From positions 92,713 to 156,712 of the forward strand of contig CANBCI010000003.1 in NCBI GenBank assembly GCA_947367055.1: a DNA stretch of 64,000 nucleotides. Direction: 5' to 3'. Positions within the stretch are counted from its first letter, which is position 1; each line of letters begins with the position of its first letter. Source of the DNA: an uncultured Alphaproteobacteria bacterium (GTDB lineage: Bacteria > Pseudomonadota > Alphaproteobacteria > Rs-D84). The notes below the pieces were generated by a model. It had not been told where the DNA came from. It searched no databases and worked only from the letters and a program-made list of their open reading frames with translations. Made by a program: the position numbers and the translations under genes. Positions 5,547 to 18,251 of the stretch are shown here, one piece after another.

Positions 5547-6140
5547 ATGACAAACGACAAATTAAGCCGCAATAAGACCATAAAACTGCCCCGCAAAGTA
5601 CAAAACGAGGGCGGCACTGCAAACACAATTGAAGACCTGTTTTCCGTCCGCCAGGGTTCCGCAACCGGATTTGATGTAAAATTCAACAGCGAAAAGGAAC
5701 GCGCCAAAGCCGACCAAATCGACTGCGAATTGGATCAAATTTCCAAAATATCACCGGAATCAAGCGACCTGCTGGTAATAACGCGAACCAAGAAACTGGG
5801 GGCGTACATTTTTGCAATAACAATCAAGACGCCACAGAAATTTCGAAGCATATACATTCGCCGCCTGCATGATTTGTGCATTGACGCATTGGACTGCATG
5901 TACCACGCAAACGCAATAAAGCAGGATTCACCCGCCAACAAACAGCGCCGCGAACAATATCAGACCGATGCGATTATAAAATTAAAATTACTGGGGTATA
6001 TGGCGTTGCTGGCGGAAAATGCGGCATGCATATTACTGCGCCAGTATAAACAAATTTCCATACTGCTGGGCGACGCGATAAATTTGTGCGCGGCCTGGCG
6101 GAAAAGCGACAATGAAAAATGGGAGGCAAAGAACAAATAA
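5547..6140 (+). CDS. avd: DGR accessory variability determinant (Avd)-like four-helix-bundle protein with a basic N-terminal extension of about 70 aa
   Basis: The C-terminal 125 aa or so have the helical heptad pattern of Avd / 23S-IVS-type four-helix-bundle proteins. The gene lies directly upstream of the TR and RT. Confidence 0.6.
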   Translation: MTNDKLSRNKTIKLPRKVQNEGGTANTIEDLFSVRQGSATGFDVKFNSEKERAKADQIDCELDQISKISPESSDLLVITRTKKLGAYIFAITIKTPQKFRSIYIRRLHDLCIDALDCMYHANAIKQDSPANKQRREQYQTDAIIKLKLLGYMALLAENAACILLRQYKQISILLGDAINLCAAWRKSDNEKWEAKNK

Positions 6141-6204: not shown

Positions 6205-6317
6205 TTTCTGGTCGGCCTCGTCCAATGAAAACAGTAATGTTCGTTGCGCCGACAATAATGGCGATAAGAATTGGTATAATCCCAAAAATCGCAAAGTTGC
6301 CGGCCGCCCCGATTTGC
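6205..6317 (+). repeat. DGR template repeat (TR)
   Basis: This non-coding 113-nt segment matches 7871-7983. There are 14 mismatches and 13 fall at TR adenines. It contains AAT/AAC/AAA-rich codon-equivalents. Confidence 0.9.
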
Positions 6318-6570
6318 TCTTGAAGAGAAACGACAAAGTTGTGATTGGCAAAGCCACAATGTTTCTATACAACATGCCAGATATGCGGATTTTACATAAA
6401 ACCCGCCCGCGCACAGAGCAAAGGAAGTTTCCTCTTTTCCAACCGCTGTCGGCGATATGCCCAGTGCGGTGGATAAATAAAAAACGCGTCGCGTTTCAAG
6501 AAACATCACGCATTTTAACGCAACCGCTTTATAGTGCTATTGGGTGTTTCTTTTTTTCAATGGTAACAAA

Positions 6571-7620
6571 ATGACACTGGATGAAATATTCACATTTGAA
6601 AACCTGTTTGACGCGCACACGCAATGCCGCCGCGGTAAACAACACAAACGCGGAACGATAATGACGGAACTGGAACTGGGGCAAATCATAAAAAAATTGG
6701 CATCTGATTTAACGCAGCGAAAATACCGGATCGGGAAATATCGTGAATTTAAAATTTACGACCCCAAGGAACGAATAATACGCGCCCTGCCGTACAAGGA
6801 CAGAATGGTTCAAATGTGCTTTTGCAAAAATGCAATGGCGCCACGATTGGAACGGCGCCTGATTTATGACAATGCGGCGTCGCGTACCGGCCGCGGCCCG
6901 GATTTTGCGACGCGGCGCCTGCATGGGTTTATGCGGTCGTCATTTATCACAAACGGCGGCAACGGTGCGTATTTTCTAAAGTGTGACATATCAAAATATT
7001 TCCCCAGCATAAATCATGATATTTTATTGTCAAAACTGCGCCGGGCCGGATTTTCCCCGGATGAAATGTGGTTTATGGAACAAGTAATCCACTCAACAAA
7101 TGCGCCATGCGGCGTGCCCCTGGGCAACCAGACCAGCCAGTGGTTCGCATTGCTGTATCTGGATGAAATAGACCGCCTGATAAAGGAAAAACTGCGCATT
7201 AAATACTATGTGCGATACATGGATGACTTTGTTTTGATTCATTCGGACAAGGCGTTTTTGCAGCAATGCCGCACGGCAATTGAACGCGCCTGTGCGGAAA
7301 AATTGAAACTGCGCCTTAATTCCAAGACACAGATTGGCCGATTAAAAGACGGGCTGGACTTTCTGGGGTTCAACCATAAACTGACCGATACGGGCCGCGT
7401 TATAAAAAAGGTGCGCGCATCCGCCCGCCTGCGCCAGCGTCGCTATCTTAATACAATCGCAAAGTATTATATGAACGACATTGTGGACGATGAATATTTA
7501 CAGGCGCGATGCGCCGCATTTCGGGCGCATTTGGCGGGAACCGGATCACAAAAATTCATAACAAATGAAATAAACAGCCTGCGTCGTCGCAAGCGATTAC
7601 AGCGCAAATGTGGCAAATAA
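6571..7620 (+). CDS. DGR-type reverse transcriptase
   Basis: It carries the YMDD box (YVRYMDDFVLI) and the DGR-diagnostic LGNQTSQ motif ([ILV]GxxxSQ) in place of the retroviral QGxxxSP. About 350 aa. Confidence 0.9.
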   Translation: MTLDEIFTFENLFDAHTQCRRGKQHKRGTIMTELELGQIIKKLASDLTQRKYRIGKYREFKIYDPKERIIRALPYKDRMVQMCFCKNAMAPRLERRLIYDNAASRTGRGPDFATRRLHGFMRSSFITNGGNGAYFLKCDISKYFPSINHDILLSKLRRAGFSPDEMWFMEQVIHSTNAPCGVPLGNQTSQWFALLYLDEIDRLIKEKLRIKYYVRYMDDFVLIHSDKAFLQQCRTAIERACAEKLKLRLNSKTQIGRLKDGLDFLGFNHKLTDTGRVIKKVRASARLRQRRYLNTIAKYYMNDIVDDEYLQARCAAFRAHLAGTGSQKFITNEINSLRRRKRLQRKCGK

Positions 7621-7632
7621 ATATTTAAAACC

Positions 7633-7661
7633 TTGTAAATTGCATAAAAATAGGGTATAAT
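7633..7661 (+). promoter_or_regulatory. Promoter candidate for the target gene
   Basis: TTGTAA, a 17-nt spacer, then TATAAT, in the RT-target gap. Confidence 0.5.
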
Positions 7662-7676
7662 TTCACATAACAGGGG

Positions 7677-9686
7677 ATGAGAAATAACAGATGCCGGGAT
7701 ACAAGTATTATGGAAACAACATTTCTAACCGAAGATCAAATATGGGGCGATAATGCCCTGCCTGTATTAAAAGAATATGGTGTTGCCGCCGCCCCAACCG
7801 ATTTAGCCGTTATATTAGGCGCAGTACTTGGCGGCAAATCAGTTGACAAAGAAAAACATTTGTCTGGACATTTCTGGTCGGCCTCGTCCGATGAGGGCAG
7901 GCTTGTTCGTTGCGCCGACTATAATGGCGATAGGGATTGGTATTATCCCAAGAATCGCATAGTTGCCGGCCGCCCCGCTTTGCCTAAATCTTCCACATCT
8001 ATAATTCGGTCGAGCGCAGCGAGACCGAATCGCAAAATTGGAAATATTCAAGTAATCGAATACGGCACATATCCACAAACCGCCGCCCCACAAAAAATCG
8101 CTGATGAACTAGAATCCGCCTATAAACGCCACAGTCTGTCCACAACGGGCAATAAATATACGTTTGATACACGTGCCTTGGACGATTATAACAATGGCTT
8201 TTCCGGGGCGGATTATGATGAATATGCGCACAATGGCAAACGATACATCCGCGTCTTGGGAAAACCATACGACGGCGACAGTAAAACCCACGACGGGCGA
8301 CAAATAGAAAAAGACAAGGTTTATTGGGTCGAAGTCCAACCGGTTGAATGGCTGGCCGACAAAAGCGGCGTCTGGGTATCGCGGGAATCGCTGTTTGCGG
8401 GCATTCGTTTCAATCCGCCTGGTGCTTATGACGGCGATTTTTCCAAAACGGAAATGAACCAATACCTGAAAAAATATTTTACACCGCAATTAACGCAAAG
8501 CAACACTTCAATTCACACCGCCACACGTGACGCATCGGCCAAGGAAAAATTTACCCAGGCCGCGAAAAAACTGTCCCATGGCGTCCAGGTAATTGATGAA
8601 CCGATGCCAATCAAAGAACAAATCTCGTTCTATGTAAAAACCGGAAAATCATTTATGCTGCACGGCCCCAGTGGTATCGGTAAAACGGCCCGCGTCGAAG
8701 CAATCGATCCGGATTTGACCGCGGTGCCGTTATGGAACGGCGTTCTGCCCGAAGATATTGTCGGCAAAGTGCGTTACCCGAACGGGAATATTGAATCACT
8801 GATGACGCCGTCGCAAACCGGCGAAGACGCAATTGAAAAACTGAACGGCGGCGGTGTATGGGTGGCGCCGGACTGGTATAATGAACTGACGCGCAAATGC
8901 GCGGCCGAACCGGACAAAACGCACGTCCTGTTTATCGACGAGGTGACCAACGCCAAACCGACAACGCAGTCTCTGATATTCCATATCGTTTTGAAAAAAT
9001 CAATCAGTCCGTCAAAGGGCAAACTGCCTGCAAACGCGGTTGTTGTTCTGGCCGGAAATGACAAAAGCGAATCCGGCGCGGCATACAATATGCCCGCGCC
9101 CCTATTCCGACGCATGTCGGGGCATATCCGTCTGGAATACAATCTGCCGGAATGGTTGGAATGGGCGTCTGAAAAAAGCCGCAAGCATCCCAAAGACCCG
9201 GCCCGCCTGAATGCACACCCGTTGATTGCACAATTCCTGGCGGCCAACCCCCAGGCGTTCTATTCAAATTATAACGAAGAAAACCCCGAACAATGGGCGA
9301 TTGACCCGCGCGGCTGGGAACAAATATCTGACATCATATACGACAACGGCAATACAATCCGGCGTGAACTTATTGAAAACAAAATCGGCCGGGAAAATGC
9401 CGCCGCATTAATGGCCTTTGCGCGCGAACCGATGATTACACTTGACGATGTGGTAAACGGGACATACAACACGGACGACATTCCGCAAAATGCCGACATG
9501 CGCCTGGCGACCACATTGAACTTGCGTTATGCCAACACGCGCCAGGTGAAAATCGTCCGCCAATTCATCCAGCAACACTTGGGGGCGGAAAACTTGGCGA
9601 TATTTGATTCCCTGTGGGTGGGCGATGACCCCGAACGCGCGATTCAAATCACACAAATGCAAAGTTTTATAAAAGAGGGGCGATAA
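7677..9686 (+). CDS. DGR variable protein: N-terminal ligand-binding-like region containing the VR, fused to a MoxR/AAA_5-like ATPase
   Basis: The VR covers aa 65-103. Walker A is GPSGIGKT, Walker B is VLFIDEV, and PLFRRM looks like an Arg-finger region. An alternative start is 7710 (METTF). Confidence 0.85.
   Translation: MRNNRCRDTSIMETTFLTEDQIWGDNALPVLKEYGVAAAPTDLAVILGAVLGGKSVDKEKHLSGHFWSASSDEGRLVRCADYNGDRDWYYPKNRIVAGRPALPKSSTSIIRSSAARPNRKIGNIQVIEYGTYPQTAAPQKIADELESAYKRHSLSTTGNKYTFDTRALDDYNNGFSGADYDEYAHNGKRYIRVLGKPYDGDSKTHDGRQIEKDKVYWVEVQPVEWLADKSGVWVSRESLFAGIRFNPPGAYDGDFSKTEMNQYLKKYFTPQLTQSNTSIHTATRDASAKEKFTQAAKKLSHGVQVIDEPMPIKEQISFYVKTGKSFMLHGPSGIGKTARVEAIDPDLTAVPLWNGVLPEDIVGKVRYPNGNIESLMTPSQTGEDAIEKLNGGGVWVAPDWYNELTRKCAAEPDKTHVLFIDEVTNAKPTTQSLIFHIVLKKSISPSKGKLPANAVVVLAGNDKSESGAAYNMPAPLFRRMSGHIRLEYNLPEWLEWASEKSRKHPKDPARLNAHPLIAQFLAANPQAFYSNYNEENPEQWAIDPRGWEQISDIIYDNGNTIRRELIENKIGRENAAALMAFAREPMITLDDVVNGTYNTDDIPQNADMRLATTLNLRYANTRQVKIVRQFIQQHLGAENLAIFDSLWVGDDPERAIQITQMQSFIKEGR
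7871..7983 (+). repeat. DGR variable repeat (VR)
   Basis: It lies in frame inside 7677-9686 (FWSASSDEGRLVRCADYNGDRDWYYPKNRIVAGRPAL). It ends just after an all-G/C 13-mer, GCCGGCCGCCCCG, followed by CTTTGC. Confidence 0.9.
8004..8030 (+). other. Stem-loop downstream of the VR
   Basis: ATTCGGTC / GACCGAAT forms an 8-bp stem with an 11-nt loop, starting 20 nt after the VR end. It is absent downstream of the TR. Confidence 0.5.
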
Positions 9687-9689
9687 AAC

Positions 9690-10040
9690 ATGACACCTGC
9701 ACAAAACGCAAAACTAACCCAGGTTTTACAGTCAAACGCGACATGGCCGCTGATTATTGTGGGCATGATGGCGGCACGGGCCCCGAATGCAACCGTTATA
9801 CCTGCGACAATTGCCGAACGCGACCTGCATAACGACACAATTCTAATAAAACCCTACATTGTGATTGACGGACTGGACAACATATCCGCCGACGCACAGC
9901 GCAAGTTTGTTCCCCTGCTAAAAGACCGGCGAACCGGAATGCATAAACTGCCGGCGGATGTGCGTATCATTGTCCCGGTGCGTTCGGCCGACAAACTGTC
10001 AAAACAAATAAAAGACCTGGCATTGATATATAATGTTTGA
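9690..10040 (+). CDS. Small protein resembling a Walker-A-less AAA+ core fragment
   Basis: IVIDGLDNISADAQRKFVPLLKDRRTGMHKLPADVRIIVPV resembles the MoxR Walker B to sensor-1 stretch. It is translationally coupled on both sides. Confidence 0.5.
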   Translation: MTPAQNAKLTQVLQSNATWPLIIVGMMAARAPNATVIPATIAERDLHNDTILIKPYIVIDGLDNISADAQRKFVPLLKDRRTGMHKLPADVRIIVPVRSADKLSKQIKDLALIYNV

Positions 10041-11463
10041 CCAACTCAAAGAATATATTTTCAAAGCGTCCGAAGAAAAACTGCGCCAGCAGGAAGAAAT
10101 AGAATACGTGCGCGATCGCGTGTTGGCGAAATTCCCGTTGCTGGGGACAACCATGGCGCGATTGAAAACCGCTCCCGCAAAGGTCATTGATGACGAAACA
10201 ATTGACACCGCCGCAACGGACGGACGAACAGTTTTTTATAATCCGGACTGGTTTATGCCCCTGTCCGACGATGAAAAGGTGTTTGTCTATGCGCACGAGG
10301 TGATGCACGTCGCATTCAACCATATTTTGCGCAGTGGCAACCGCAATCACAAGATATGGAACCAAGCCACCGACGCCGTCATAAATCAAATATTAAAATC
10401 CGAAAGCCTGCCGATGCCGGAAAACGGTGTGGATATAGCCGATGCAATCCAACATTCCGCCGAAGAGATGTATGAAAAATTGTTGCGGGAAAATAAAAAC
10501 AACAAAAACGACAAAAACGAACAGGCCGGCCACGACAACCACAATATTTGGAAAAAGGCACTAGAACGCGCTGAAAAAGAAAAACAGAAACAGAAAAATA
10601 ATAATGGCGCCAGTGGCGACGAAAAAAACGAAAAACAACAAAACCAGGATCAGGGTGGCACCCAAAATCAGGCGCAAAAAAATCAGTCGGAAACGGACAA
10701 AAAAAATTCACCAAACGACAGTGAAAGTGAAAAAAACTTTCCCCAGGAAAATCAGCGCACCCGGGCGCAGCGCGCCGCCCAGGCCCAGCGCGCCTTAAGC
10801 GCCGCAAAAAATCATGCCATGAACCAGGCCGCCCGGGATTCCGTCCAAAATTTCGGTCCGGTCGGCGAATCCGACGCCGTTGTTGATTGGCGCCGGGTGC
10901 TAAAAAAATCACTTGAAGAAGAGCATGACAAATGGTCGTACCGCCGCAGCGACGAAGATAATGATTTTATGGCGCGCGTTGAAGAACTGGACGACGAAGA
11001 ACGTGCCGACACCGAAGTCATGCTGGACACCAGCGGTTCGGTCAGTGAAAGTTTTCTGCGTGAATTCCTGCGTCAATTGAAACCGCTGCTAAAAAACGGC
11101 AACCTGCACGCGGGATGTTTTGATGAACTCTTTTACGGCTTAAATGACATCAAAACCAATGACGACATTGACAACTTTAAAATTATCAGTCAAACCGGCG
11201 GAACACGATTGGATGTGCCGGTCAAATCATTTTCAAAAAAACCAGATATAAATAAAATAATTTTTACCGACGGATATTGCAGTCCACATGCAATGCCTGA
11301 TGCCAGCACACGAAATATAAAAAATTTGATATGGCTGGTCTATGGCAATCGTGATTTTCACCCGATTTGCGGCCGCGTGATACAGATTGACCCCACCACA
11401 ATCCACAACAACTTTACAATGGTGCCACACGCGGCGATTATTGACCCAAGCCATCACCGGTAA
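10033..11463 (+). CDS. DUF2201-type putative metallopeptidase plus VWA-like domain protein
   Basis: It has an HExxH motif (YAHEVMHVAFNH) in the N-terminal half and a MIDAS-like motif (MLDTSGSVS) in the C-terminal half. A K/N/Q/E low-complexity linker joins them. Confidence 0.8.
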   Translation: MFDQLKEYIFKASEEKLRQQEEIEYVRDRVLAKFPLLGTTMARLKTAPAKVIDDETIDTAATDGRTVFYNPDWFMPLSDDEKVFVYAHEVMHVAFNHILRSGNRNHKIWNQATDAVINQILKSESLPMPENGVDIADAIQHSAEEMYEKLLRENKNNKNDKNEQAGHDNHNIWKKALERAEKEKQKQKNNNGASGDEKNEKQQNQDQGGTQNQAQKNQSETDKKNSPNDSESEKNFPQENQRTRAQRAAQAQRALSAAKNHAMNQAARDSVQNFGPVGESDAVVDWRRVLKKSLEEEHDKWSYRRSDEDNDFMARVEELDDEERADTEVMLDTSGSVSESFLREFLRQLKPLLKNGNLHAGCFDELFYGLNDIKTNDDIDNFKIISQTGGTRLDVPVKSFSKKPDINKIIFTDGYCSPHAMPDASTRNIKNLIWLVYGNRDFHPICGRVIQIDPTTIHNNFTMVPHAAIIDPSHHR

Positions 11464-11886: not shown

Positions 11887-11976
11887 TTGCTTTTTATCGT
11901 GTTTTGTGGTATAGTAAAAGTGTACTAATTTTAGTCGGCATTGTGCCGACTTTTTTATTTTTCAAAAGGATTTACA

Positions 11977-12981
11977 ATGGCATTAAAAGAATACACCACA
12001 ATGACAACCAAAGATTGGTTGCGGGTCGCCAGCACCGCATACAAGGCATATGTAAAAACAAGAACAGGAAACAATCAAGGCACATCAGATGACGAAGAAA
12101 AATGCGATGGCATAATTCAGGTTGGCGGCTATACCCGTTCCGATGGCGCAAAAGTTGGTGCATATGAAAGAATTTGCCCATATCATTATCAAGGCGGGAA
12201 ACGTCCAAATGAAGAAAACAAAGAGAAAAAATTTTCTTTAACCACAGGAATTTCTTCAAGTAGTAATGCCAACAGCAATGATGTTATAAAACTGAAAACA
12301 TACTTAAACAAAATGAATTATTACAAACCGGAACCGCGCAGTGAAACAGAAGACAAGTTTCACGGGTATCCGAATGACGCCTTGGTGGATGCGATTAAAA
12401 ACTTTCAAAAAGATAATGGATTGATTGCGACCGGTAAAATATTTCCAGGCGACGCGACTGAATCTGCAATAAACAGTAAATTTGAATCGCACGGCGTGAC
12501 ATTTGAATATCCAGTGAATACAAACAAGAATCAAATCGCAATATTTGATGGCAAATCACTGACATTGTATGAAAATGATAAAAAAATAAAATCATGGGAC
12601 GGAATGTCTGGAAAGCCTGATTATCAAGGCAAAGAAAACCAAGGTTTAAAAAATAAAGGCCCATTACCAGAAGGTACATACGTTGCAAGGCAGTCAAAGA
12701 TACAAAATATAGATCTAAAAAATGCTGCTTTGGGTTCGGCAAGCGCTATCGGCATAAAAGCCGGCGGATGGCCAGGTTCTTATTATTCATGGGGCAAGCA
12801 CAGGGTTTGGCTGGAAGCATCACAAGAAACAAACACATACAATCGAAACAAATTTAGCATACATGGCGGTTGGCGCCCAGGTTCTGCAGGCTGTATTGAT
12901 TTGACCGATGGGATAAATACTTTTATTAAAGAATTAGAAAGTACTGGCAAAGACTTGGTTATTAAAGTAAAATACGAATAA
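11977..12981 (+). CDS. Tlde1/DUF2778-like L,D-transpeptidase-fold toxin with a peptidoglycan-binding domain
   Basis: The PG_binding_1-like segment is DALVDAIKNFQKDNGLIATGKI. The C-terminus has GPLPEGTY and HGGWRPGSAGCID (an H...SxGC catalytic motif). Confidence 0.65.
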   Translation: MALKEYTTMTTKDWLRVASTAYKAYVKTRTGNNQGTSDDEEKCDGIIQVGGYTRSDGAKVGAYERICPYHYQGGKRPNEENKEKKFSLTTGISSSSNANSNDVIKLKTYLNKMNYYKPEPRSETEDKFHGYPNDALVDAIKNFQKDNGLIATGKIFPGDATESAINSKFESHGVTFEYPVNTNKNQIAIFDGKSLTLYENDKKIKSWDGMSGKPDYQGKENQGLKNKGPLPEGTYVARQSKIQNIDLKNAALGSASAIGIKAGGWPGSYYSWGKHRVWLEASQETNTYNRNKFSIHGGWRPGSAGCIDLTDGINTFIKELESTGKDLVIKVKYE

Positions 12982-14101: not shown

Positions 14102-14752
14102 ATGAAAAAGTCACACATTGTCATTTCCGACATAACATGCATGAAAGAAAAGTTCTGCATTGCCGGTTTTGACACGTATGAAAAGCGTATGAAACGTCTA
14201 ATGATTGACGGTGGATATTGGGATGCGAATCAAATTCCGGCCACATATTGCGAAATACTTGTTGATAACGAAGAATTCAAGGAGCCACGTGATTACCCAC
14301 ACCGAACCGAAGATGTAAATATAGATTTTGATTCAATTGAAGTTTTGCAAGAATTTGAACCAGGAAAAGATCTGGCAAATGCTTTGCGCGATAGCGTTTC
14401 AAAAGATATCCAGGGCATATTCCATCATCAGGTCAAAGAAGATACCTATGTGCCACAGAAAACCAAATGCCCTTCGTTGGGCGCCATATTGATTCCGGCA
14501 CACAATATTGAATTCTTTACAGAAGACGGCAAATTACGCGCCCGTATTACAGACTATTCCAAACAAACATATGAATTAAAGGTCAGTTGCAAATACCTGC
14601 GTGATATATTCGAAAAAGACAAAGATGTCACAGGTTTGAACAATGCTGTTGCCGCCAGCCAGTATGCCCACTGTCGCATAGGATTGGCACGAAAGTTTCT
14701 TATGCGGGAAAATCATTGCTATTTGATGTTAAACGGGCTATTTTTGTATTGA
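14102..14752 (+). CDS. Hypothetical protein (216 aa)
   Basis: An AAAGGA SD is present. The stop lies 1 nt from the DUF488 start. No family was recognised with confidence. Confidence 0.6.
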   Translation: MKKSHIVISDITCMKEKFCIAGFDTYEKRMKRLMIDGGYWDANQIPATYCEILVDNEEFKEPRDYPHRTEDVNIDFDSIEVLQEFEPGKDLANALRDSVSKDIQGIFHHQVKEDTYVPQKTKCPSLGAILIPAHNIEFFTEDGKLRARITDYSKQTYELKVSCKYLRDIFEKDKDVTGLNNAVAASQYAHCRIGLARKFLMRENHCYLMLNGLFLY

Positions 14753-14753
14753 T

Positions 14754-15179
14754 ATGACAAAGATTTTTACGATTGGTTTTAGTGGTAAAAGTCCTGACGC
14801 GTTTCTGGATGTGCTAAACGCGGTGCGTGTGCGTGCTGTTTGGGACATACGCCTGTGGCGAACAAGCATATACGTGCCATTCTACAGTGGCGACAGTTTG
14901 GCGGGTGTGCTGGGGAAGCGGTACGAATATCACCCAGAATTCGCCCCAAGCACCGAAATCCTTGCCGGTTACAAAGATGGCCGCATAACCTGGCCTGATT
15001 ATGAGCGTATGTACCATGAATTGCTGACCACACGCCATCCGACCGCAGGAATGACACCGGACGCGCTTGACCGCATTTGCCTGCTATGCACTGAAAAATC
15101 CGCCACACAATGCCACCGACGCATTGCTACCGAATACATTGCAGCACAATTTTCTGATATTGAAATTGTGGATTTATAA
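14754..15179 (+). CDS. DUF488-family protein
   Basis: The signature reads IFTIGFSGKS...VWDIRLWRTS...LLCTEKSATQCHRRIATEYI. Confidence 0.8.
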   Translation: MTKIFTIGFSGKSPDAFLDVLNAVRVRAVWDIRLWRTSIYVPFYSGDSLAGVLGKRYEYHPEFAPSTEILAGYKDGRITWPDYERMYHELLTTRHPTAGMTPDALDRICLLCTEKSATQCHRRIATEYIAAQFSDIEIVDL

Positions 15180-16613
15180 TTATCCCCCAAAATCTAGTGT
15201 ACAAGAGCTACTAAAAATCGTTAATGTCTTGCATGCCCTGCTTATTGCTACATAAAAATTCTTACAATCCATTGTTTGTGCATCTAAAACAATCACGTTA
15301 TCAAATTCTAAACCCTTTGTAAGAAGCGTAGAACCAATACACTTACTATGTAAGCTTCGACCTGCTTGGCGTATTTTGTTCTTATATGCATACATTGAAT
15401 CACATATAGACATATCAGATATAGCAGCATCTTTCACTGCTTTTATTATGGCGTTCAATAGTTCCGGGCGCTGATATTTTAATTTAAGTTCATCTTTCAT
15501 GAATTTGACGATATAATGTAACGATTGTTTATCTATGCAATTGTTTTGCAATTTTTCGATGTGGGATTTTAGCAAATTGCATTTTTCTATATCCGATTGA
15601 CTCCTTTTACATTTTAATCCTGTTGCATTAAACCAGTTAGCAATATCTGTTTTATTAAATATGAATGATTCGCAAATTTCTTTAAATAAAGAAAATTGTC
15701 TTTCAGATGTGCAGAGATCATCTAATTTGGCCGATATATTATAAAAATCTCTATCATCAATTGATTCAATTAATTGAAACCGCTGCAACCCCAAAGAATT
15801 ACGTAATTTTTGTCTCTGTTTTATTTGCCTATTATCTATTATCAGTATATTATCATAGGTATTAGCTAGTCTCAAAAGGCTTCTTTTATACAAAGTATCC
15901 TCATAAACACCACCAGATGTTCGTATAAAAGTTATGCCAGGCCTATCTACCGACAAATCTATAATGCTATCTACTTCAATATGTCGTCTAATTTCTTTTA
16001 TGGACTCCCCTAATTCAAGATTGTTGCTATTTGTACTCCTCCACCGCCATGGTATTTCCAACGTTCCTGCCTCATCTGAAAAATCACATAAACACTCATT
16101 AAATTCAACCAGTTGTTCTCTAAATTCAAAAATACCTTGCAGAGGATCGCCTAGTACATGCATTGGAATAAAATCTTTCAGTTTCATTAGCATATTATGC
16201 TGTTTTAACGTACAATCCTGATATTCATCAATAAATATACCTGTATATGTTTTTTTGATTATTCCAATTATTGGTCTCTTTGAAAATAATTCCGTCGCTT
16301 TTTCAATAATAATATCATGAAATCCAACTGCCTTTTGTTCTGGAACTTGATTTGCCATAAATCCTAGAACATATTTTTGAGCATAACCGCATATTGTTTC
16401 AACATTATATGCGGATGGTCGAACTCCTTGTTTTAATAGTTTTGACTTTATTGAAGCCACACCTGCGTGAGTATGCGTTAAAATAAGCTGTTTCCCCTTA
16501 TTGCGTTCATACGTATACTTGATACACTCTGCAATAAATTGCGTTTTTCCATAACCCGCCGGCGCAATCACTTTTGTCTTTAAACCACTTATAAACGTCT
16601 CTATATCTACCAT
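15180..16613 (-). CDS. gajB: UvrD-like superfamily 1 helicase (Gabija GajB-like)
   Basis: It has the APAGYGKT Walker A, FIDEYQD motif II and LTKGLEFDNVIVLD / YVAISRA C-terminal motifs. The start abuts the gajA-like stop. Confidence 0.8.
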   Translation of the reverse strand: MVDIETFISGLKTKVIAPAGYGKTQFIAECIKYTYERNKGKQLILTHTHAGVASIKSKLLKQGVRPSAYNVETICGYAQKYVLGFMANQVPEQKAVGFHDIIIEKATELFSKRPIIGIIKKTYTGIFIDEYQDCTLKQHNMLMKLKDFIPMHVLGDPLQGIFEFREQLVEFNECLCDFSDEAGTLEIPWRWRSTNSNNLELGESIKEIRRHIEVDSIIDLSVDRPGITFIRTSGGVYEDTLYKRSLLRLANTYDNILIIDNRQIKQRQKLRNSLGLQRFQLIESIDDRDFYNISAKLDDLCTSERQFSLFKEICESFIFNKTDIANWFNATGLKCKRSQSDIEKCNLLKSHIEKLQNNCIDKQSLHYIVKFMKDELKLKYQRPELLNAIIKAVKDAAISDMSICDSMYAYKNKIRQAGRSLHSKCIGSTLLTKGLEFDNVIVLDAQTMDCKNFYVAISRACKTLTIFSSSCTLDFGG

Positions 16614-18251
16614 TTATGCGTCAATCCATTCTGATAACGCGTTCCAAACTCTTTTCATATGACAGTCAGAAACCGCCCCCCAATTCGCGAATATAGTATT
16701 TCCCAACGTTTCAGCCTTATCAATTCTTTTGTACCATTCTCTATCTTTGTTAATTGACAATTTTGCAATTCTAATTCTATCTCTCTCAATATCAACTACA
16801 TTTCCCAAGGAAGAAGTATCTTCTTTTGAAATTATGCCTTCTATTACATCCCAAGGCAAATCTTTAAAAATTTGATGTTCTATATCATTACCGTCTTCAG
16901 AATCAAAAACCTGTATCCCATTGTCCCTCAATGCTTGTTTCTGTCCATTTACATCGGCTCTATCAGAATCTAAAAAAACACACACATCAAAGCCTAAGTC
17001 CTTTATTTTCTTAGCTCTATCAATTGCGCTACTTCCTTCTCCTACAATATAAAAACAATCTTTAGATGCCATTGACGGTAAATTTTGTTTTACACGCCAA
17101 GAATCCATAGCTCTGCATATTCCTATTTCTGTTTTTCCTTCACAAACAATGATTTTATTACAAAAAAATCCTTCAGGGTTTGCTCTAACAATGGCCTGCC
17201 AATTATCTTTTGAAGGAATATTTTTAATATACACATTTTCTTTGTCATCGAACTTTTTTACTAAATATAAATCATTTGAATTAAGTTCTACAATTGCATC
17301 TCGCGAATGAGTAGTCAGAAAAATCTGCCCCTTGTTTTCATTTTTTAACGATGATACTATTTGTCTAATTCTATCAGGTTCCAAACCTTGCTCTATTTCA
17401 TCTATCAACACAATTCCACCACGTTTTGCCAGAGCTAATTGTATCGCCATAGAAATTATACGTTTTGAGCCCTTACCCATTAAACGCAATGGGATATTAT
17501 TATCGTTATTTAAACATACCTTGTTATCTTTGATAACAATATCCTTAAAATCAATTGATGTTTTCATTGCACCAATATTTAATCCCAATATACCTACATA
17601 TTTTGTTACTTCATTTATTGCACTTTCTGTTTGTGGAAACCCCGCGCTATCTATATTTATTTTTACTTCACGCAGCCTATCAATAATTATATTACGCTCA
17701 TCTGTTTCTGACGAAAAATTCTTCAACAATTGATAAAGAGGCGACCCCTTACTCCAAGAAAAATGCTTATCAACATAGTCAGATATAAAAGAACAGTTTA
17801 ATTTTGATCTGTCTGTTGCGGATATCGCTTTGGGCTCCTGACGCCCAGTCACCATTTCCCATTTTGGTTCCAATGTTTTATCCACAGTTAATCTAATAGT
17901 ATATACATCTTCCAACTCCGGGTTATCTATTACTTCATCTGTAATTTCACCCGTACTTTTATTATATTGTCTTTTGTATAAACCAAATTTATCTTCTGTT
18001 TGCAATATATCCGGAATATTTGCTAATGTAGCCTCTATTTTTATTGGTTGAGTAACATCTGCATTAAAGAAGTCTGTATCATAAAATTGCAAAATATGGC
18101 TGGGGTATAAAACATAATAAATAGAATCCAAAATTGTTGTTTTTCCGCTATCTCCTCTACCAATTAAGCAAATAAAATTTTTATCAAACGTTTCTGAAAG
18201 ACATTTGATTCCACGAAAATTTTCTATATCCAACTTTAATATATTACTCAA
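16614..18251 (-). CDS. gajA: OLD-family ATPase plus Toprim nuclease (Gabija GajA-like)
   Basis: The N-terminus has GRGDSGKTT, followed by VLIDEIEQGLEP. The C-terminal Toprim has IIVCEGKTE and FLDSDR. Confidence 0.8.
   Translation of the reverse strand: MSNILKLDIENFRGIKCLSETFDKNFICLIGRGDSGKTTILDSIYYVLYPSHILQFYDTDFFNADVTQPIKIEATLANIPDILQTEDKFGLYKRQYNKSTGEITDEVIDNPELEDVYTIRLTVDKTLEPKWEMVTGRQEPKAISATDRSKLNCSFISDYVDKHFSWSKGSPLYQLLKNFSSETDERNIIIDRLREVKINIDSAGFPQTESAINEVTKYVGILGLNIGAMKTSIDFKDIVIKDNKVCLNNDNNIPLRLMGKGSKRIISMAIQLALAKRGGIVLIDEIEQGLEPDRIRQIVSSLKNENKGQIFLTTHSRDAIVELNSNDLYLVKKFDDKENVYIKNIPSKDNWQAIVRANPEGFFCNKIIVCEGKTEIGICRAMDSWRVKQNLPSMASKDCFYIVGEGSSAIDRAKKIKDLGFDVCVFLDSDRADVNGQKQALRDNGIQVFDSEDGNDIEHQIFKDLPWDVIEGIISKEDTSSLGNVVDIERDRIRIAKLSINKDREWYKRIDKAETLGNTIFANWGAVSDCHMKRVWNALSEWIDA

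Follow-up and report, generated by a model that had tools for sequence, protein, structure and literature searches.

Diversity-generating retroelements (DGRs) associated with MoxR-class AAA+ ATPases and von Willebrand factor A (vWA) proteins have been described as "ternary" conflict systems (Kaur, Burroughs, Iyer and Aravind, 2020, PMC7159879; Dore et al., 2024, PMC10907252). These systems are made up of cellular rather than phage genes; a MoxR-class ATPase, a vWA protein and a peptidase are linked to the DGR, and the hypervariable ligand-binding domain was proposed to be an intracellular sensor or effector. The variable repeats (VRs) of DGR targets have been argued to lie C-terminally so that the homing signals can be intergenic (Roux et al., 2021, PMC8144416). 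In an earlier survey, 3 of 372 DGRs had an N-terminal VR, and internal or N-terminal VRs force the initiation of mutagenic homing (IMH) sequence to overlap with coding sequence (Wu et al., 2018, PMC5758913); a 5′ VR is also carried by the tentaclins (PMC10743442). Homing in BPP-1 needs a GC-rich stem 4-34 bp after the VR, the structure of which matters more than its sequence and the loop of which has a conserved G...A (Guo et al., 2011, PMC3240598). Here we describe a DGR in a 64,000-nucleotide stretch of DNA from an uncultured alphaproteobacterium (positions 92,713 to 156,712 of contig CANBCI010000003.1, assembly GCA_947367055.1; hereafter the window, in which all positions are given), the VR of which lies near the 5′ end of a long gene for a MoxR-class ATPase.

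Our overall reading, which we regard as likely, is that this chromosomal DGR diversifies an intracellular sensor head on a MoxR-vWA switch, probably for defence. The identity of the element as a DGR and the architecture of the locus can be stated with high confidence, and for the sensor or defence role, argued by analogy with described systems, we would put the chances at about even. Adenine-specific transfer from the template repeat (TR) to the VR, conserved cis elements, the domain architecture of the target and conservation of its operon were all observed directly, and the features concerned are collected in Table 1.

The TR and VR form a 113-nucleotide direct repeat with 88% identity and 14 mismatches. 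Because 13 of the 14 fall at adenines of the upstream copy, that copy is the template repeat of a DGR and the copy within the open reading frame (ORF) is its variable repeat. The remaining mismatch is a T to G change, at 6235 in the TR and 7901 in the VR; in several related loci, 5-17% of the mismatches are likewise at non-adenine (T) positions. Translated in the frame of the VR, the TR reads FWSASSNENSNVRCADNNGDKNWYNPKNRKVAGRPDL, and it differs from the VR at 11 residues, one of which is a fixed Asp to Ala change (RPDL/RPAL); the original prediction, made from the sequence of the window, had given 12 variable residues, a count that has to be lowered accordingly. The VR was correctly placed near the N-terminus by that prediction, at codons 65-103 of a 669-residue ORF. 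Since homologues begin at the equivalent of the ATG at 7710 (METTFL...), this is probably the true start, which would give a protein of 658 residues with the VR at residues 54-92.

The reverse transcriptase (RT) of the window is 55-72% identical to the RTs of homologous target loci in 15 genomes. In 14 other species, Avd and RT genes lie directly upstream of the homologous target gene, and at a fifteenth locus (L029) the RT lies ~7 kb upstream and no Avd was detected. The Avd-like protein of the window matches known profiles weakly (bAvd, 16 bits against a cut-off of 40, E 0.017; NCBIfam DivGenRetAVD, 20.5 bits against a cut-off of 80, E 4.6e-4), and a gene 47-61% identical occupies the same position in 15 related DGR loci. 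Its N-terminal extension of ~75 residues (5547-5770) is basic and is kept in related cassettes, as in a 202-residue protein of locus L085. Typical Avd proteins are not known to have such an extension. The 3′ flanks of the TRs, from 6318 to 6400 in the window and in related loci, all share CTCTTGAAGAG-like and TGTGATTGGCAAAGCCACAA-like inverted repeats, which presumably belong to a structured spacer RNA used in priming by the DGR RT.

Diversification is also visible among the relatives. TR/VR pairs were recovered in 14 related loci, with 78-100% of the mismatches at template adenines and the VR always 150-290 nucleotides into the gene (about 50-95 codons). One orthologue cluster, 52% identical to the window protein, contains ten full-length alleles from different samples that are 92-98% identical overall and differ almost exclusively within residues 62-87, that is, in the VR. 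The alleles of this cluster point to ongoing diversification in the population, and the window strain's own cluster has three members only. An RT-less orthologue (P0066), by contrast with the variable DGR-bearing alleles, is represented by one identical sequence on 42 contigs, and no TR was found near the RT-less homologues L001-L004, where one was sought.

An N-proximal VR requires that the homing signals be accommodated within the gene. The GC-rich 3′ end of the VR has the features of an IMH, and the ARPALP peptide is nearly invariant in an alignment of 58 full-length family members. The C at 7978 in the window VR is a fixed difference between the IMH and its counterpart in the TR (IMH*): at 15 of 15 loci the VR reads ...CCCG-C-TTTGCC and the TR ...CCCG-A-TTTGCT. 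Because it is fixed in all 15 loci, the Asp to Ala change noted above is the IMH*/IMH difference and not a product of mutagenesis. Downstream of the IMH lies a hairpin or cruciform that is a candidate target-recognition element, with a predicted DNA folding energy of -9.1 kcal/mol (z -2.15). Its consensus, stem-GA-RC-GNA-GY-GA-stem, occurs ~20-25 nucleotides 3′ of the VR in every VR-bearing gene, and is absent 3′ of the TR.

Covariation in this hairpin was examined across 13 distinct sequences, with controls in which the pairing partner was slid by 1-3 columns and with 500 shuffles. The hairpin cells were paired in 90% of cases as against 23-43% in the slid controls, compensatory two-sided changes were seen in five of the seven pairs, and the covariation score was reached by none of the 500 shuffles. 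Exchange of the inner G-C pair for A-T reads as Ser-Ala versus Asn-Val in the encoded peptide, I(R/S)P(S/N)(A/E)(A/V)R, and this coupled change would most simply reflect a constraint on the nucleic acid. The hairpin was present at 16 of 16 loci with an RT versus 2 of the 10 RT-less loci for which the upstream sequence was long enough (Fisher p = 2e-4, a value computed with L018 as hairpin-negative, whereas L018 does have the hairpin). The locus thus appears, from sequence comparison, to possess both an IMH and a downstream hairpin confined to the target, as in other DGRs. The original prediction had counted ~560 codons after the VR in the same frame and had called homing into the 5′ part of a long ORF, with a separate promoter just upstream, mechanistically unusual. 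The count of codons 3′ of the VR is 566, and the arrangement is indeed rare, with homing signals inside the gene; it is not without precedent, given the few N-terminal VRs in the Wu et al. survey cited above and the tentaclins.

Table 1. Features of the DGR locus and its surroundings, in window positions
Feature	Position	Strand	Description
Avd-like DGR accessory gene	5547-6140	+	197 residues; N-terminal extension of ~75 residues; weak profile matches, conserved position
Template repeat (TR)	6205-6317	+	113 nucleotides; ends 3′ in GCCGGCCGCCCCGATTTGC, the IMH* that corresponds to the IMH of the VR
DGR reverse transcriptase (RT)	6544-7620	+	358 residues; RVT_1 5e-17; group II RT-like 1e-25; PADLOC RT 1e-32
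Sigma-70-like promoter candidate of the target operon	7633-7661	+	TTGTAA-17-TATAAT, 10/12, consensus match only
DGR target gene	7677-9686	+	669-residue ORF: putative DUF6273-like permuted variable head, linker and MoxR-class AAA+ ATPase
Two-lobed head domain	7710-8516	+	Sub-domain A ~7710-8021 (holds the VR); sub-domain B ~8037-8516
Variable repeat (VR)	7871-7983	+	Codons 65-103 of the 669-residue ORF
IMH-like GC-rich 3′ end of the VR	7965-7983	+	GCCGGCCGCCCCG CTTTGC; encodes conserved AGRPAL
Hairpin/cruciform, candidate target-recognition element	8004-8030	+	TTCGGTC-GA-GC-GCA-GC-GA-GACCGAA; encodes I-R-S-S-A-A-R-P-N
Disordered linker between head and ATPase	8505-8576	+	Residues 277-300; pLDDT <50 in full-length model; indel-rich in family alignment
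MoxR-class AAA+ ATPase module and C-terminal helical domain	8590-9686	+	
Small conserved ORF	9690-10040	+	116 residues; starts 4 nucleotides after the ATPase stop
DUF2201 partner	10033-11463	+	HExxH metallopeptidase-like and vWA-like domains, DxSxS metal ion-dependent adhesion site (MIDAS); overlaps the small ORF by 8 nucleotides
PDC-M45C-like gene	14754-15179	+	4e-31; next to Gabija
GajB	15180-16613	-	PADLOC 1e-114
GajA	16614-18251	-	PADLOC 2e-157

The protein that carries the VR is encoded by one gene. A protein database search returned 209 relatives of the target, and most of the best 120 of these, which were inspected, are 640-700 residues long with 97-98% query coverage. The 58 full-length sequences that were aligned are collinear from N-terminus to C-terminus, and more than 100 homologues from independent assemblies share ORF length and architecture. 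A genome scan, limited to one genome per species, returned 80 loci, which belong to metagenome-assembled genomes (MAGs) of gut and rumen Alphaproteobacteria, with more distant relatives in Clostridia MAGs. At the alphaproteobacterial loci, hidden Markov models (HMMs) of the sub-domains find head lobe A, head lobe B and the AAA module together in one ORF. In a full-length AlphaFold2 model, both parts of the protein are predicted confidently (mean predicted local distance difference test score, pLDDT, 85). That the frame is a single gene, free of frameshift or assembly error, is thus borne out by the 58 aligned homologues and the 80 genomic loci, and the motifs that the original prediction had quoted around the VR were all found (APTDLAVILGA, GHFWSASS, VRCAD.NG, VAGRPAL, IEYGTYPQ, YWVEVQPVEWL and LFAGIRF). 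As a side observation, the Clostridia loci (L042-L084) keep lobe B and the AAA+ module, mostly without a recognisable lobe A; they have other N-terminal extensions, often with several paralogues per genome, and no DGR was detected adjoining their ATPase relatives.

Because a Foldseek search with the full-length model gave AAA+ matches only, the head was modelled alone with AlphaFold2 (model m7a36ddfdc870, residues 12-280, 27 homologues), yielding a pLDDT of 94.8 and a predicted template modelling (pTM) score of 0.92. Lobe A (model residues ~1-104) consists of short helices followed by a beta-meander (strands 55-60, 66-69 and 75-78) in which the VR lies, and lobe B (105-265) is a larger beta structure with a helix at its end. 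The model residues at which the TR differs, 61, 63-65, 71, 75, 76, 79 and 84, together with the fixed IMH difference at 90, sit in loops and strand ends of the meander with pLDDT >90. The variable residues are thus predicted to be part of a well-ordered meander, and the concern that they might fall in a disordered linker does not apply. Foldseek gave no significant match of the head model to the PDB (best E 0.046, template modelling (TM) score ~0.1), and the best match in BFVD, a DUF6273 protein, was weak (E 0.048).

Searches with the head alone gave no matches in Pfam, NCBIfam or PDB sequences. A profile of the head found 2903 relatives among 1.84 billion cluster representatives, most of them stand-alone proteins of 270-400 residues; others occur as tandem repeats or, in a few cases, in fusions with ankyrin, DUF4116, MORN or AAA domains, and the order of the lobes is always A then B. 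DUF6273, a published DGR-target domain with the VR at its C-terminus (PMC11792537; PMC10743442), was matched by three of ten tandem or multi-domain relatives scanned singly and by 4 of 90 in a family scan. In P0154, residues 214-375 match positions 5-170 of the 172-position profile with 26.3 bits, beginning where lobe B ends and continuing through the following lobe A. P0158 is matched in the same manner, with a score of 20.9 bits that is below the cut-off. In P0161, residues 57-117, the VR-equivalent part of lobe A, match the last 58 positions of the profile (114-171) with 31.4 bits. Two of these tandem or divergent relatives exceed the gathering score of the Pfam family (PF19789, 23.5). The sequence of the window, even when permuted, gives no match, and the link to DUF6273 is for this reason transitive, through relatives only. 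The head is therefore best described as an apparent divergent, circularly permuted relative of DUF6273 that is not a member by the Pfam definition. Permutation of a DUF6273 domain would turn its normally C-terminal VR segment into an N-proximal one. The original prediction had likened the segment to small modules ending in GVRPAL in other variable or surface proteins, and such a module does exist, in that family members match DUF6273 exactly over the VR-equivalent segment.

The same prediction had proposed a compact head grafted onto an AAA+ motor, and this proposal agrees with an independently folding head, a linker at residues 277-300 and some 2900 mostly stand-alone relatives. Locus L085, from an environmental alphaproteobacterial MAG, is informative in this regard. 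Its RT and Avd are 64% and 61% identical to those of the window, and a single TR (12113-12229) is the template for two VRs, each in a stand-alone head (302 residues, encoded at 7860-8768, and 304 residues, encoded at 14710-15624). The VRs lie at residues ~56-94, and the same IMH and hairpin follow each of them. One of the heads is encoded between genes for an 823-residue protein, a 104-residue protein and an 894-residue protein that combines an HExxH motif with a VWA_2 domain. A test of whether the 823-residue protein is an AAA+ ATPase gave no match in Pfam or the PDB and an hhalign probability of 0.3% against the window family. L085 nonetheless looks like an unfused version of the system in the window. 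Because its stand-alone heads are diversified by the same RT and Avd lineage, the window protein can be seen as a free-standing variable head that was fused to the motor of a head, ATPase and vWA-peptidase system.

The motor has the Walker A (GPSGIGKT), Walker B (LFIDEVTN), sensor-1 (AGN) and RR motifs, which are invariant or nearly so in the 58 sequences. The top Foldseek matches of the full-length model are NorQ and CbbQ2 (E 1e-8, TM-target ~0.6), two MoxR ATPases that act with vWA partners, and Pfam AAA_5 is matched below threshold (18.7 bits against a cut-off of 22). The AAA+ assignment is made from these sub-threshold Pfam matches and the clear structural match of the model to NorQ and CbbQ, and the closest structures, the AAA+ motifs and the adjacent gene for a vWA/MIDAS partner all point to the MoxR class. 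That partner gene always adjoins the ATPase gene at related loci, and the downstream genes are kept in nearly all of them. Its product matches DUF2201_N (5.9e-32) and DUF2201 (7e-7) and has the motifs HEVMH at residue 88 and DTSGS at residue 332; of 57 homologues, all 57 have HExxH and 56 have DxSxS. The small ORF between the two genes is likewise kept in nearly all loci. Its 116-residue product has no family match in Pfam, NCBIfam or PADLOC; it contains a stretch of the form hhhhDG (YIVIDGLD) and, further on, an RIIVP strand, which resemble Walker B and sensor-1 strands such as a fragment of a P-loop NTPase would have.

A separate promoter for the target operon had also been predicted. The site is the best promoter match between 5000 and 12000, and a similar -35/-10 pair occurs at the same place upstream of the target in related loci, with or without an RT, although the number of promoter-like sites in the region is not above that in shuffled controls. 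Because the pair recurs in related loci of both kinds, it suggests insertion of the DGR cassette in front of an operon that is self-sufficient. A terminator-like site lies at 11933-11951, at the end of the operon, and is followed by an ORF (11941-12981) with peptidoglycan-binding and Tlde1/YkuD-like L,D-transpeptidase domains. Tlde1 domains are known from effectors of type VI secretion systems.

The flanking genes are chromosomal and include NrdD/NrdG, a GNAT acetyltransferase and the L,D-transpeptidase-like protein. NrdD, an anaerobic ribonucleotide reductase (3.8e-167), and its radical-SAM activase are encoded upstream of the DGR, at 153-2693, which fits the chromosome of an anaerobic gut bacterium rather than a mobile element. 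A complete Gabija system lies 3.7 kb downstream, and Gabija and the PDC-M45C-like gene together are found 3-7 kb downstream, so that the DGR operon lies beside a defence locus. The nearby Gabija system and the published proposals of DGR-MoxR-vWA conflict systems (PMC7159879; PMC10907252) would, by analogy, count in favour of a role in defence.

Together these features suggest a mechanism in which a chromosomal DGR (Avd, TR and RT) acts on a three-gene operon that lies directly downstream and probably has its own promoter. Following the published mechanism of DGRs, the RT would copy TR RNA into cDNA with misincorporation at adenines, and the mutagenised cDNA would replace the VR. Homing would be directed by the IMH at the end of the VR and by the GNA-loop hairpin ~20 nucleotides further on, both within the reading frame, where the IMH encodes AGRPAL and the hairpin a short connector between the lobes of the head. 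The VR would specify the beta-meander FWSASS-x5-VRC-x-...-W-...-RPAL in lobe A of a head that is predicted to be cytoplasmic. Because a flexible linker joins the head to the MoxR motor, a hexamer would display six variable heads. Binding of an intracellular ligand by the head might then be passed on through the MoxR ring to the partner, an HExxH peptidase with a vWA/MIDAS domain, a coupling modelled on MoxR-vWA pairs such as NorQ-NorD. The outcome would be an intracellular sensor or switch tuned by the DGR, most plausibly against phages or other invaders.

Several observations weigh against this interpretation. The sensing and defence role is read from architecture and neighbourhood, and none of the three operon proteins was matched in PADLOC. 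Many homologous operons have no adjacent DGR, and the basic function of the operon would therefore be independent of diversification. The CLec-like fold that had been proposed for the head was not recovered: no CLec or FGE fold was found among the top 50 PDB matches of the head model, and the VR occupies residues 54-92 of 658 rather than the C-terminal position seen in CLec-fold DGR proteins. The window head and 27 close relatives have no DUF6273 match in Pfam, nor do heads re-ordered as B+A (the window and four relatives, with and without the beta insertion). Finally, stops or indels in the VR of about half of the related DGR-bearing genomes may reflect relaxed selection or frequent null alleles.

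Four other explanations of the locus were weighed. The MoxR-vWA operon might be a housekeeping chaperone or maturation system of the kind represented by NorQ/NorD and CbbQ/CbbO, with the head adapting the recognition of substrates or partners and no part in defence. The nearest solved structures, NorQ and CbbQ, are indeed of maturation factors, many species keep the operon without a DGR, one of them with an identical protein on 42 contigs, and PADLOC gave no matches. A hypervariable putative binding surface is, however, hard to square with a fixed client, and no conserved candidate client gene lies beside the operon; the partner has a conserved HExxH peptidase motif, unlike NorD and CbbO, and the neighbourhood varies among genomes and here includes Gabija, so that we consider a housekeeping function unlikely. 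That the element is part of a prophage with a virion receptor-binding protein as its target, as in canonical phage DGRs, has in its favour that DUF6273 DGR targets are typical of gut phages (PMC10743442; PMC11792537) and that phage-like genes occur near some related loci. It becomes very improbable in view of the chromosomal flanks, the fusion of the target to a cytoplasmic AAA+ module, its lack of a signal peptide or structural-protein features, and a search for head relatives in 50,697 phage genomes (INPHARED) and in IMG/VR that found none. An artefact, in which frameshift or misassembly joined a small DGR target to a separate ATPase, would account for nothing other than the odd position of the VR. 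With more than 100 continuous homologues of 640-700 residues from independent assemblies and sources, lobe A, lobe B and AAA in single ORFs in dozens of loci by sub-domain HMM mapping, and a structural model in which both parts are confident with a linker between them, its probability is negligible; the homologue set, the collinear alignment and the mapping refute it.

The remaining alternative, that the locus is mainly an on/off switch, holds that homing into the N-proximal VR toggles the full-length ATPase, and possibly the translationally coupled downstream genes, with specificity being secondary. All TRs examined contain AAA or AAG codons, which adenine mutagenesis can convert to TAA, TAG or TGA, and full randomisation would place a stop in 15-39% of products. 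An in-frame TAA is already present within four TRs (L005, L006, L010 and L029). Stops or indels were found in the VR in 8 of 15 related DGR-bearing assemblies (in-frame stops in L005, L006, L015, L028 and L029; indels in L018, L019 and L026), and ~25 of the 120 best homologues, about a fifth, were annotated with a start just downstream of the VR. Since the VR lies near the N-terminus, alleles with a stop or frameshift are nulls. The VR of the window is nonetheless intact, and eight codons of its TR are of the stop-proof AAY type, as against three that can be converted to stops (AAG, AAA and AAA). Intact alleles are diversified in the typical manner, at positions compatible with the scaffold, and some of the stops and indels may have arisen in assembly because the region is polymorphic. 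We thus think it quite improbable that switching is the main role of the locus. The element may also serve as an on/off switch in addition to diversifying the head; alternatively, the loci concerned are relaxed or mis-assembled.

Diversification of a sensor head on a MoxR-vWA switch remains the reading that we prefer, and a more specific version of it, which we hold as doubtful, combines both activities. In this version the locus would represent a class of its own among intracellular immune receptors, one programmed by a DGR, with a hexameric MoxR ring, six hypervariable, permuted lectin-like heads and a vWA-tethered metallopeptidase effector gated by the ring, and the DGR would also switch the receptor off and on. 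If this is correct, a population would hold a range of specificities together with a stock of null alleles that keeps autoimmunity in check, and the translated hairpin would show that the cis elements of a DGR fit wherever a linker tolerates them, lifting the presumed constraint to C-terminal VRs.

Comparison with known systems places the locus among several described arrangements. In the ternary conflict systems, a variable FGE-type CLec domain is C-terminal on the vWA protein or on a separate target, following a "strict syntax" with other domains N-terminal, the MoxR protein is separate and invariant, and VMAP is present. In the window, the variable head is on the N-terminus of the MoxR protein itself and the vWA partner is a DUF2201 HExxH peptidase. 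Neither VMAP, as judged by gene content only, nor an FGE/FGS domain was detected in the operon, so that the VMAP component and the C-terminal FGS domain on the vWA protein that characterise the ternary systems are not found here. The hosts differ as well: the present system occurs in gut Alphaproteobacteria known from MAGs only, whereas the ternary systems were reported from cyanobacteria, actinobacteria and multicellular forms. Tentaclins and other DUF6273 targets of phages (PMC10743442; PMC11792537) share with the head a DUF6273-related domain, a VR that forms a beta-hairpin or loop surface and a gut habitat. Tentaclins are phage proteins in which an unpermuted DUF6273/C-lec domain is followed by Ig-like domains; the window head is permuted, with a large beta insertion, and belongs to a cellular protein in which it is joined to an AAA+ module. 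No relatives of the head were found in the phage collections, and the window target had no Ig or Fn3 matches and does not have the composition of a tentaclin.

A DGR-diversified domain and an AAA-type ATPase are also combined in one polypeptide in the AAA-CLec targets of candidate phyla radiation (CPR) bacteria and DPANN archaea (cited in PMC10907252) and in Midasin/AAA targets (PMC5758913). As described, the VR of these targets is C-terminal, and the window protein has the reverse order and different RT and head lineages. The NorQ-NorD and CbbQ-CbbO pairs resemble the system in that they include the best structural matches of the ATPase module and an adjacent vWA/MIDAS partner; they have no variable head and no peptidase domain in the partner, and they serve a fixed metabolic client. 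The homing elements resemble those of BPP-1 in that the VR ends 3′ in a GC-rich IMH and a GC-rich stem-loop follows within 4-34 bp, in the conservation of stem structure rather than stem sequence and in the conserved G...A of the loop (PMC3240598). Where BPP-1 has a GRNA tetraloop, the window has a GNA triloop that is closed by a C-G pair, with tandem G-A/A-G mismatches on its flanks, and the hairpin is wholly translated, so that covariation is visible as coupled Ser/Asn-Ala/Val changes.

Rare N-terminal VRs (Wu et al., 2018; tentaclins, 2023), links of DGRs to MoxR-vWA systems (Kaur et al., 2020; Dore et al., 2024) and AAA-CLec targets in CPR bacteria were thus already known. In the literature searched, no description was found of a variable head on the N-terminus of a MoxR ATPase, of a DUF2201 peptidase-vWA partner, of a circularly permuted DUF6273 scaffold or of a translated, covarying homing hairpin. 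The window and 15 sister loci, in which the IMH and the hairpin are both translated, constitute a natural counter-example to the rule that VRs are C-terminal (PMC8144416), and they imply for engineering purposes that a long ORF could have a DGR target at its 5′ end, provided that a linker accepts the ~60 nucleotides of IMH and hairpin. They would also extend the "antigen sensor" idea proposed for DGR-MoxR-vWA systems to abundant gut and rumen Alphaproteobacteria and, with the sensor fused to the motor, offer a compact three-gene system for testing what such systems sense.

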